A DNA stretch of 64,000 nucleotides. It comes from Nitrosopumilus sp. Its GTDB lineage: Archaea; Thermoproteota; Nitrososphaeria; Nitrososphaerales; Nitrosopumilaceae. Where the stretch lies: contig CBDBLX010000002.1 of the NCBI GenBank assembly GCA_965207445.1, positions 1,719,849 to 1,783,848 on the forward strand, in the 5' to 3' direction. The notes beneath the pieces were generated by a model. The model was not told the origin of the DNA. It did no database searches and saw nothing but the letters and a program-made list of their open reading frames with translations. Below are positions 33,919 through 37,500 of the stretch, in pieces (within the stretch, counting starts at the first letter, position 1; each line of letters begins with the position of its first letter). The translations under genes and the position numbers were made by a program.

Positions 33919-34575
33919 TTACATATGTTTTTCTAGTCCAGTCTTTTTTGGTTTCCAGTTTTTAGGTTCAAATTCTTCAGGTAGTTGGGAAACCAGCCGA
34001 TCGGATTCTGTACCCACGTATGCTAACCTCTCTATAATGACGCGCACTTCTTTACCGGGCACGTTCTGGAGCGGCCAGTTCTCAATCCCACTCTCCTTGT
34101 CTATTGTTTGGCCATAGCGGTCTACAAACCATTCCAATGGTGTCCTCCCATTCACACGATACTCACACACAGGCAGATCAGCATACACAGTCACATCATC
34201 AATTATCAGTACGTGTTGATTCTGACTACTTGTAATGTTCTCGATTATGTCTTTCTTCTGGCGCCCCCATCTAATCTTGCGCGGTGAATCAGGTATTGTA
34301 TTTACAGGCTTTCCTAGATCGTACCGCTTGCAGGTCTCGTATGATAAGTGTAGATCGGTCAACTTTTTGCCTGTCTTTGAGAATGCCCAAAAGTCAGGGG
34401 CCATTGGAATGTGTGGCAATTCACGTGAGAGGTTGTTTGCATATTTTTTACGGTAGGCAGAATGATGTAACAATCCATAAACGTAATAGAAAATATCTTC
34501 CTTAGAGATCGTGTTGTCATTATAGTGTACTTGGTATTCTTCCAGAGCGTAGTCTGTAATGTTGTCTACCATCAT
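33919..34575 (-). CDS. Type ISP restriction-modification C-terminal (TRD) domain encoded as a separate ORF
   Basis: DNITD, IFYYVYGLLH..YR..YANNL.RELPHIP, YRVNGRTPLEW; ATGA overlap with the upstream ORF. Confidence 0.9.
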   Translation of the reverse strand: MMVDNITDYALEEYQVHYNDNTISKEDIFYYVYGLLHHSAYRKKYANNLSRELPHIPMAPDFWAFSKTGKKLTDLHLSYETCKRYDLGKPVNTIPDSPRKIRWGRQKKDIIENITSSQNQHVLIIDDVTVYADLPVCEYRVNGRTPLEWFVDRYGQTIDKESGIENWPLQNVPGKEVRVIIERLAYVGTESDRLVSQLPEEFEPKNWKPKKTGLEKHM

Positions 34576-37500
34576 TTCTCCGTCATCACCTTCATCGGAA
34601 ACACCTGTGACGGACTTAGTGAATTGAGATCGGGAATAAGATCTGTCACTAGAGCCGAAAAGGTTCCTTTTGTTTGTATTATAATTGATAGATTGTGGCT
34701 GGCTGGCTGGCTGGCTGGCTGGCTGGCTGGCTGGCTGGCTGGCTGGCTGGCTGGCTGGCTGGCTGGCTGGCTGGCGTTACCCAAGCTTGTTTTTAAAGGA
34801 AATGTTTGACCATTCTTTATATTTTGAATATCAGGGGTTATGTTAGTCACGATTGTAGAAAAATCTGCTGTGCTGGGTTTGTATGGGATATGAATTGTTA
34901 TATTGTGTGCATGTGTTGGAAATGCATTCCAAACAATAGCAGGCCTATGTGTAAATATTTTATCAAGATAGAGATATTGTTTAAAAAATGGGCGATATAA
35001 AGCAATACGAATTTTCTGCTTGTTAAATTTTTGCTTTCCATATTTTTTTAGCCTATCGGATAAGCCAGGAGACCATTTAACTTTTTTATAATCTATGTTA
35101 TGTGGTTGTTTTGGTCCGTGTTTGTTACAATAGTCTATATGTATTTTCATGTTTTTTGATAATTCGTTTTTAGAAGAATTATATGCCCAAACATCTCTGC
35201 TTGTTGCGACACCGTTCCAAAATTGCCGGAATAGTGAGTTTTCTTTACCCATTTTTGCGTTTTTGCTACCCATGGGCAAATATTTGGAAAATTCACTACT
35301 TCTTTGCCCTAGCCAGTCGTGATGTCTGTCTGGTGTTATGACCTTCCAGCCTTCAATACCAATGATGGAGCCTGTGGTCTTGATGATTTCCAGTTTGGAC
35401 TCCCGGTTGTGGTAATCACCGATGTCGCGATAGTGTACAACTCCAGGCGTCGCCTTTTTTGGGTTCTTTACTAGGATGGTGATGGCAACAGGGGTTCTAG
35501 TACCCAATCCAAAGATTCCACCTCCTTCCTTTTTACGTACTTCACCTTGCGTTCTGGCATTGCCCCTCAAATCAAACACCCACACGTCTGTAAACTCTTG
35601 CTGCAGGCAAACACGTACACCTGCAGCAGCCTCTGATCTGATAAATGATGCATTTGTGACAAACCCAATTATTCCAGAGTCACCTATACGATCAGATGCC
35701 CACCGCATGGAGCGTATGTAAGAGTCATGCATTGCATTTTTGGCACCTAATGTGGGATTGATTTGTTCCAGCTTTGTGATGTATGTTTTTTCTACACGTT
35801 TTTCAATCTCTGGGTATGATACATTCTGATTTTGATCATTAAAGTTACTTTGTTTGCCAGAGTAGGGAGGGTTACCAACTATAACTGTGATGTTGGCCTT
35901 GCGTTGCGTCCGTATGCCGGTCTTTGGCTGTGACATGATGTCACCGGCATATTCATCAAGCCTGGCGCTGTTAAATGTGTCAGTTAATGATAGTCCCTCA
36001 AATTGCTTAAACGTGCCAGTGCGCTGACCGTATGCCGACTCCAAGTTAACTGACGCAATATAATATGCAAGCAGTATGATCTCATTTGCAAATAATTCTG
36101 CTTCATACTTGCGCTTTACATCCTTTTTTAATACAAGTTTGAGGTCAGGTGACAAGAGTCTGGACAAAAATGTACCTGCCCCCGTAAACGGATCAATAAT
36201 GTTGACATTTTTATCAGTCAGTCCTTTGCCAAAGTTTTCTTGCAGTACATGTTCTACTGATCGTAGTATGAAATCTACAACTTCAATAGGCGTATACACA
36301 ACACCCAGTCTCTCTGCCATTTTAGGAAACGCAAGTTTAAAGAACGTTCCATACATTTCACTTATCACCTGTTGTCTAGCCTCGTGAGTATCCAAGTTAG
36401 CTATGCGCTTTTCGATACTAACATAGAATTTTTCCAAGTCTCGTAGTTCCGTATCTAGACCATGTGACTGTAACTCTTTGATTACACTTGTGATGGCAAC
36501 AGATACCGGATTGTTCTTGCTAAATGTGTCAGTACCAAACATTGCATCAAATATACGCCGCGTGATCATGTGTTGGGCCAACATCTCGACTCCTTCTTCA
36601 TCAGTTAACCCGTCGTGTATAATCTCACGTAAACTTGACATAAAGTCATCAAACTTTGATTTTGCTCCCTTTTCGGATAATGTCTTTTCAATTCGTTCTT
36701 GTATCCGTGGTGTAATTTTTGCCACATCGTTTGCCCAATGCTCAAAGTACTGGCGGTCGCCTACCTCGTCAACAATTTTGGCAAATATTGCATCATTTGG
36801 AATGTCTAAATTTGCAAGAGGAATTGCAACAGGCATTTCTGTTGCATCTCTACGTTTACCCTCACCATCAATTCCAATCCAACTAATTTTGGAGGGGTTC
36901 TTTTTTCGAATATCTGCGGTATTAACATCAATGTCCATCCGCTCATCATGTGAGCGTAGTGCTCGTAGTACACTCCATATTGTGTTAAATGTCTCCTTGC
37001 TATCTAGTATCTTGGTGGGATCGCTATCTTCTGGAACTGCAATTGGTACAATGACGTATCCATACTTTTTCCCCTTTGCGATTCTCATGACTCTACCTAC
37101 TGCTTGTATGATGTCGACTTCAGATGTCTTAGGATTTGTAAAACATATGGAATCCAATGCAGGCACGTCTACACCTTCAGAGAGACATCGAGCATTTGTC
37201 AATATACGACATTCATCAGGATTAGAAGAGCTGTCACGGAGCCATTGCAGTGCGCTAGCTCTAACTGATGCGTTTTGTGAACCATCAACGTGTTGGGCAT
37301 CACAGTGAAATGGATTCTTTTTTTCATCTAGATCAACTTTCTCAAAAGTTGCTGCAAAGTTTTTTGAATCACGTATACGATTAGTATACACAATAGCAGT
37401 CTGTACATTTTGGGCATAATCATCGCCGGGATTTTGAAACGCCTTGTATATGCCAACCATTTTAGCAGTGTCAGTTAGATCAATGCCCCCGGCATCACCG

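Follow-up and report, generated by a model that had tools for sequence, protein, structure and literature searches.

What does a run of 20 GCCA units do inside the target-recognition region of a restriction-modification gene? The gene lies in a stretch of 64,000 nucleotides (the window) from a genome with archaeal 16S and amoA genes, that of an ammonia-oxidising archaeon; one homolog of the gene is labelled Nitrososphaerota.

A Type ISP gene divided by a repeat tract

As assembled, the gene consists of two overlapping open reading frames (ORFs), with the tract inside the first of them (n is the number of GCCA units):

34572–38801, minus strand: N-terminal ORF as assembled (n = 20), 1409 residues from the ATG at 38801, with Pfam and PADLOC matches.
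33919–34575, minus strand: C-terminal ORF, 218 residues, core helices of the target-recognition domain and guide subdomain (PF18135 positions 167–327; matches to the C-terminal parts of LlaGI, LlaBIII and DrdV).
34696–34775, minus strand: slippage tract (GCCA)20, 20 perfect units, which sets the downstream reading frame.
34572–34575, minus strand: ATGA overlap, where the B frame stops and the C-terminal ORF starts.
34585–34591, minus strand: Shine-Dalgarno-like AGGTGAT, 9 nt ahead of the ATG, complementary to the 3′ end of the 16S of this genome.

The N-terminal ORF encodes, in this order, an Mrr nuclease, an SF2 helicase, a coupler, a gamma-class N6-adenine methyltransferase and a target-recognition core with two modules, A and B. 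It matches LlaBIII and LlaGI with E-values of 4e-270 and 1e-258, respectively, and the catalytic motifs of the nuclease, Walker A, DEAH, motif VI, FxGxG and NPPY are all present. The domain order is that of a Type ISP enzyme according to Pfam, PADLOC, the alignment with LlaBIII and LlaGI, and the motifs. PF18135 is split in two, with positions 2–155 ahead of the tract and positions 167–327 in the 218-residue ORF. The single-polypeptide layout of Type ISP enzymes is obtained when n mod 3 = 0, and two chains are obtained as assembled (1409 and 218 residues at n = 20). The observed arrangement is real and strongly patterned, and it is most likely functional.

Several other elements are found nearby and elsewhere in the genome. 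An integrase-core transposase and an IS110-family transposase lie at 28855–31231 of the window, 2.7–5 kb downstream of the Type ISP gene. An 84-nt element with 16-bp terminal inverted repeats at 33537–33620 looks like a MITE, with 129 near-full copies in the genome (141 matches in total). At 54545–54579, a (CAAG)8.8 tract lies between two convergent ORFs, with no coding role seen. The genome also encodes two intact single-module Type ISP-like genes (C2:1547755–1552428 and C2:1136237–1140958) and another Type ISP-like gene that is split in its helicase region by a C15 run (C2:1302281–1302295).

The tract sets three reading frames

An exact recount agrees with the 20 perfect units that a sequence-only reading of the window had placed at these positions. 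The tract is the longest of nine perfect tetranucleotide tracts with at least five copies in the 2.6-Mb genome, and it is a long, perfect, non-triplet repeat within a coding frame, as expected of phase variation. The gene was translated in silico with n = 0–25 GCCA units, and two further features follow from these translations:

34576–34695, minus strand: bypass frame, 40 stop-free codons obtained by reading the B DNA one base back, a spacer joining A to the C-terminal part (n mod 3 = 0).
34679–34681, minus strand: TAA closing the third frame (n mod 3 = 1).

When n mod 3 = 0, the 120 nt between the tract and the ATG contain no stop in the C-terminal frame, and the two ORFs are fused into a product of 1624 (n = 18) or 1628 residues (n = 21), counted from the ATG at 38801, in agreement with the earlier estimate of about 1,630 residues. 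At n = 20 (n mod 3 = 2), module B is read and followed by a TGA that overlaps the ATG at 34575, giving 1409 residues. The earlier description of a second specificity-like segment in this frame is borne out by the translation and by the alignment of the modules. With n mod 3 = 1, the TAA is reached five codons past the tract, again as first described. For this one B module, the chance of an open bypass frame is 0.215 by synonymous codon shuffling.

Modules A and B differ in the residue that reads the +3 base

34794–34904, minus strand: module A, a strand, beta-hairpin and Loop VI, with Gln as the +3 reader (codon 34824–34826), assigned by the LlaBIII/LlaGI alignment.
34593–34694, minus strand: module B, a diverged second copy, with Asn as the +3 reader (codon 34623–34625), in frame with A at n = 20.

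The module measures about 36 residues. Module A, the 37-residue stretch before the tract, aligns with LlaBIII as far as residue 1365 and with Loop VI of LlaGI, and shares 50% nucleotide identity with B. In these enzymes, a Loop VI residue reads the target base at +3, H1368 of LlaGI reading G and N1360 of LlaBIII reading A (PMC4872093, in part). Since Loop V lies upstream, outside the duplication, only the +3 base is predicted to change.

In all 30 A/B pairs compared among homologous loci (three were read by eye), the two modules have different +3 residues. Nine residue combinations occur, with H, E, Q and N making up nearly all of them. The gene in the window has such a second copy of a recognition element, under the control of the repeat and with another contact residue. 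Scored against a single-module profile, B comes out above A in 24 of the 30 pairs. The copy in the window shows the opposite order (40.4 for B versus 54.2 for A) and its B is 2–3 residues shorter; this copy could therefore be decaying. The possibility that B is a recent local copy of A was ruled out by the nucleotide identities within loci (47–66%).

Conservation of the two-module layout in archaea

Homologs were collected by searches of overlapping sets of 61, 151 and 401 genomes, from which 40 regions were fetched. PF18135 was found in 38 of the 401 genomes. In the family, 18 genomes have the two-module layout, at 29 loci in total, and 33 single-module genes served as controls. The main class comprises 22 loci with 23 B modules. 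One further locus, G162, is omitted from the 29 because its module A was not detected, and is kept as the 23rd junction beside the 22 loci.

The bypass frame is open in all 23 main-class B modules, versus 3.3 expected from synonymous shuffles, whereas only two of the 29 A modules and three of the 33 single modules are open in that frame; the loci are kin, so that these counts, like the others in this section, overstate independence. The 21 B modules of equal length fall into 15 clusters at 85% nucleotide identity. They are 71% identical in amino-acid sequence in their own frame versus 44% in the bypass frame, and the changes are mostly at third positions, which argues that B is selected as a protein and the bypass frame only for openness. 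The overlap is selected as well: the stop of B overlaps the C-terminal start as ATGA or GTGA at 23 of 23 junctions, versus none of the 33 single-module genes. A Shine-Dalgarno match of 6–8 nt to the complement of the 16S 3′ end accompanies 15 of the 23 junctions, a count that comes without a chance control. Programmed ribosomal frameshifting at the junction was also considered and dropped, with no conserved slippery site seen by eye.

A tract of at least five copies separates A from B in 25 of the 29 loci. Its unit is 1, 2, 4, 7, 8 or 11 nt long, never a multiple of three, and is repeated up to 89 times. No repeat longer than 10 nt was found at the place of the tract in the 33 single-module genes. 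All three states predicted for the tract are represented in the main class, with 11 loci fused, seven in the A+B frame and four in the third frame.

Some loci deviate from this pattern. A second class consists of three loci, in G169 (twice) and G170, where B is in the other frame, the bypass is open in all three cases, and the C-terminal part has no canonical start. B is fused to the C-terminal part in G028 and in two G319 loci. The G253c locus is degenerate, and four of the 29 loci have no real tract. At locus L086 of G319, beside a two-module gene, the only module is a hybrid that starts like A and ends like B, likely a recombinational collapse. In L047 (G160), an 11-nt unit is repeated about 89 times (978 nt) between A and B. 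In L048 (G028), a second tract, (CA)21, lies between the methyltransferase and the recognition domain and makes an ON/OFF switch further upstream, like that of H. pylori JHP1272. Versions with three modules and two cassettes that can be bypassed are found in L072 (G189), L098 (Acinetobacter), P0163 and P0015; their sequences suggest multi-way switches.

Variation in repeat number

Repeat numbers and frames vary among homologous alleles, that is, among homologs and near-identical pairs. P0011 and P0163 are identical over 400 of 400 residues upstream and continue in different frames past a proline run. The pairs P0002/P0151 (95% identical) and P0004/P0152 (91%) differ in being in the A+B or the fused state, and further clusters vary in repeat number. 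For the locus itself, the four sequence runs listed as containing it are all assembled contigs of one sample, with no RNA run among them. Contigs assembled from 31-letter words are unlikely to resolve an 80-nt tract. A search of metagenome contigs with the 24-nt tract flanks gave no matches. The exact value of n = 20 could be an assembly consensus.

Repeat variation is also seen elsewhere in this genome. Contig C1 is a second version, about 98.6% identical, of C2:1–119513, and may be behind the 5.5% contamination figure of the assembly. The two versions differ in a poly-C tract (20 versus 24 nt) and in an 11-mer (7 versus 6 copies). Differences at homopolymers, including those of frame among homologs, may be assembly errors. 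Two families of long genes with secreted-looking products have poly-G/C runs of 12–19 nt at their 5′ ends (C2:397364, 1222504, 1234781, 1327967, 1605723, 1717821, 2151321 and 2347715); they are likely a set of contingency loci in an archaeon. The genome, which is 96% complete, has no match to MutS and, for NucS, only one below the cut-off, a result that is consistent with weak mismatch repair.

Bacterial occurrences

The sequence-only reading had placed the switch in an archaeon. That placement is supported, yet the design extends to bacteria. A profile of 44 modules, searched against 1.84 billion proteins, ranks two-module proteins first, and the clusters of these proteins have members with names from Neisseria species, Eikenella and Acinetobacter ursingii. 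Searching genome contigs with one of these proteins gave 79 loci, seven of which contain two or three modules: Neisseria wadsworthii (with a 4-mer repeated 33 times), N. shayeganii, Neisseriaceae B1, two Cardiobacterium, Perlucidibaca and Acinetobacter. The two Cardiobacterium loci have 14.5 and 5.5 repeat copies and an identical C-terminal protein. In these bacteria, the bypass frame is open in all eight B modules (1.7 expected) and in 14 of 59 single modules (12.4 expected). In a scan of metagenome proteins, mostly of distant relatives, two modules were detected at one of 80 loci, one module at 72 and none at seven.

A quick tree was built from the C-terminal part (118 rows; 18 loci that were too short or incomplete were skipped). 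The bacterial rows lie on a long branch away from the archaeal rows, and two-module genes nest among single-module genes on the archaeal and bacterial sides alike. Separate archaeal and bacterial origins are thereby only suggested, since the bacterial rows were picked by their likeness to one protein of a Neisseria cluster. N. wadsworthii and N. shayeganii share the layout, which makes the mechanism testable without culturing the archaeon.

Structure models

The natural fused homolog G269 is predicted to fold with a pTM of 0.80, and its spacer (residues 238–269) has pLDDT values below 50. The predicted fold matches 5FFJ and 4XQK (LlaGI and LlaBIII; E-value 3.5e-30). For the two n = 20 pieces, a complex was predicted with a score of 0.88 versus 0.01 for the best control, though a gene divided in two may score this well if the predictor has memorised solved structures of its homologs. 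Between runs, at least 81% of the contacts are the same, and the partner has a pLDDT of at least 84. The mark used for such scores was reached by 116 of 157 solved pairs and by 2 of 215 mismatched pairs. In the complex model, A (residues 164–206) is at the interface and B (residues 236–269) is not. As modelled, this position of A tells against B displacing A, though the input alignment, which placed single modules on A, favoured A.

A proposed mechanism and its alternatives

Frame choice by replication slippage is established for such repeats in general. Here, we infer that slippage alters the number of GCCA units and thus puts the gene into one of three frames. In state A (n = 18 or 21), one polypeptide would be made, with module A in the recognition core and the B DNA read out of frame as a loose spacer. 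In state B, the assembled one with n = 20, the longer chain would end with A, the repeat and B, the ribosome would restart at the overlapping ATG, and the separately made 218-residue piece would assemble with the long chain. B would then replace A or compete with it, and the base read at +3 would change. The C-terminal helices that pack against the core would arrive only after B has been made, so that B could compete for the slot of A. In the third state (n = 19), truncation after A would turn the enzyme OFF, or would leave weak A activity if the C-terminal ORF starts alone.

The A+B state quite probably has a changed or added specificity. We give a probability of roughly 0.6 to the complete reading, in which a slippage tract selects a dual-coded internal cassette as recognition module or spacer, the stop/start overlap turns one chain into two in the former phase, and one target base is swapped through the readers H, N, E and Q; three-module loci would be multi-way, and this class of switch, undescribed before, would occur in archaea and bacteria, having possibly evolved separately. 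The earlier proposal of a phase-variable restriction-modification switch, possibly in specificity as well as ON/OFF state, gains comparative support. The third frame, however, may not be OFF. The switch looks primarily like a change of specificity at one target base (+3), and not merely like an ON/OFF switch.

A possible variant of this mechanism, partly counted within it, is that specificity in the A+B state is dual or relaxed, the two modules alternating in the slot so that two motifs are methylated and restricted. Module A is intact in the same chain and was kept in place by the complex model, and the H. pylori mutant JHP1272-mut1 modified both motifs in E. coli (92.3% and 72.8%; PMC3936762, in part). 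The higher scores of B in 24 of 30 pairs and the clean switch in HpyAXVI (same source, in part) speak for replacement instead. It is rather unlikely that the tract is a plain ON/OFF switch with B as a silent reserve that comes into use through recombination alone, by deletion or conversion between the two modules. The hybrid module of one G319 gene, A-like at its start and B-like at its end, and the interleaving of one- and two-module genes on the tree are what such recombination would leave; however, a silent cassette needs no stop/start overlap with the next domain, which is present at 23 of 23 junctions and in none of the 33 single-module genes. Nor does an OFF state require the B frame to be open, and 7 of the 22 main-class loci are in the A+B frame.

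That the family is a switch while this copy is fixed or decaying, with a non-functional B and n = 20 giving a split enzyme of A specificity, is improbable. The shorter, lower-scoring B in the window and the truncated C-terminal part of a relative, G145c, point that way, but the 20 copies are perfect, the catalytic motifs, bypass frame, overlap and Shine-Dalgarno-like site are intact, and both G189 and an intact paralog encoded in this genome have a Loop VI of similar Asn type. An assembly artefact, or a neutral microsatellite in a pseudogene, might be suspected in a genome rich in repeats and insertion sequences. This idea is refuted by a layout that is conserved with differing repeat units in 18 archaeal genomes and in the named bacterial ones, and its probability is negligible. 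The preferred reading is the dual-coded specificity switch.

If it is true, repeat-driven methylome switching is extended to archaea and to Type ISP enzymes, as the first such switch in an archaeon within the literature searched, and a population could flip its methylation together with its defence target. One repeat would swap an internal piece of a domain by dual-frame coding and conditional gene splitting. The modules are natural paired variants for decoding the amino-acid code at +3, which is a recognised difficulty when restriction specificity is engineered. To annotation pipelines, these genes look broken.

Comparison with known systems

LlaBIII and LlaGI (4XQK, 5FFJ; PMC4872093, in part) share the domain order, motifs, recognition loops and the Loop VI +3 reader with the gene described here. 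Unlike it, they have one module, lack a repeat and are always a single polypeptide. Type III mod phasevarions had been put forward as the precedent. The modA gene of Neisseria, GCCA(6–37), has the same tetranucleotide unit in similar copy number in a methyltransferase gene (PMC5953494, in part), but these systems switch ON/OFF, belong to a different enzyme type and have no duplicated module. Nearer precedents are the Type IIG switches of H. pylori and the HsdS switches of Mannheimia.

In the three-TRD HsdS of Mannheimia haemolytica and Fusobacterium nucleatum, and in the hsdS of NgoAV, repeat length toggles between two active specificities; in the extended HsdS, TRD 2b is proposed to replace TRD 2a, which fits the Mannheimia motifs (PMC7383803, in part). 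These switches differ in concerning Type I subunits and whole C-terminal TRDs, with neither a bypass frame nor a split polypeptide. An ATGA overlap with an intragenic Shine-Dalgarno-like motif couples genes in Haloferax and E. coli (PMC6728339, in part). Unlike in those cases of termination-reinitiation coupling, what the overlap here would save is the latter half of a single domain, and it would do so in only one of the phases of a switch.

The open-access literature searched yielded no paper on repeat-driven switching in archaea or in Type ISP genes; subscription papers, REBASE and survey supplements could list some of the loci. The term 'archae' is absent from the main text of two REBASE repeat surveys, and passages of a 2025 review and of a Neisseria phasome paper describe no such switch.

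The closest likeness is to H. pylori Hpy99XIV (JHP1272) and HpyAXVI (HP1353-1354), in which a duplicate added by frameshift displaces the resident recognition part and one or two bases change (PMC3936762, in part). There, as here, a repeat-controlled frameshift adds a duplicate target-recognition part. The H. pylori duplicate is an optional C-terminal tail of an MmeI-like enzyme, controlled by homopolymer tracts, whereas here it is internal, in a Type ISP enzyme. It is not a dispensable C-terminal extension, as 218 residues of the domain follow it in another frame. Because the duplicate is internal to the domain, its DNA has to be free of stops in two frames, and restart at the overlapping ATG has to supply what lies downstream. 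This architecture of dual-frame coding with conditional gene splitting was not found described, while its working would, by analogy, be that of the known H. pylori switches.
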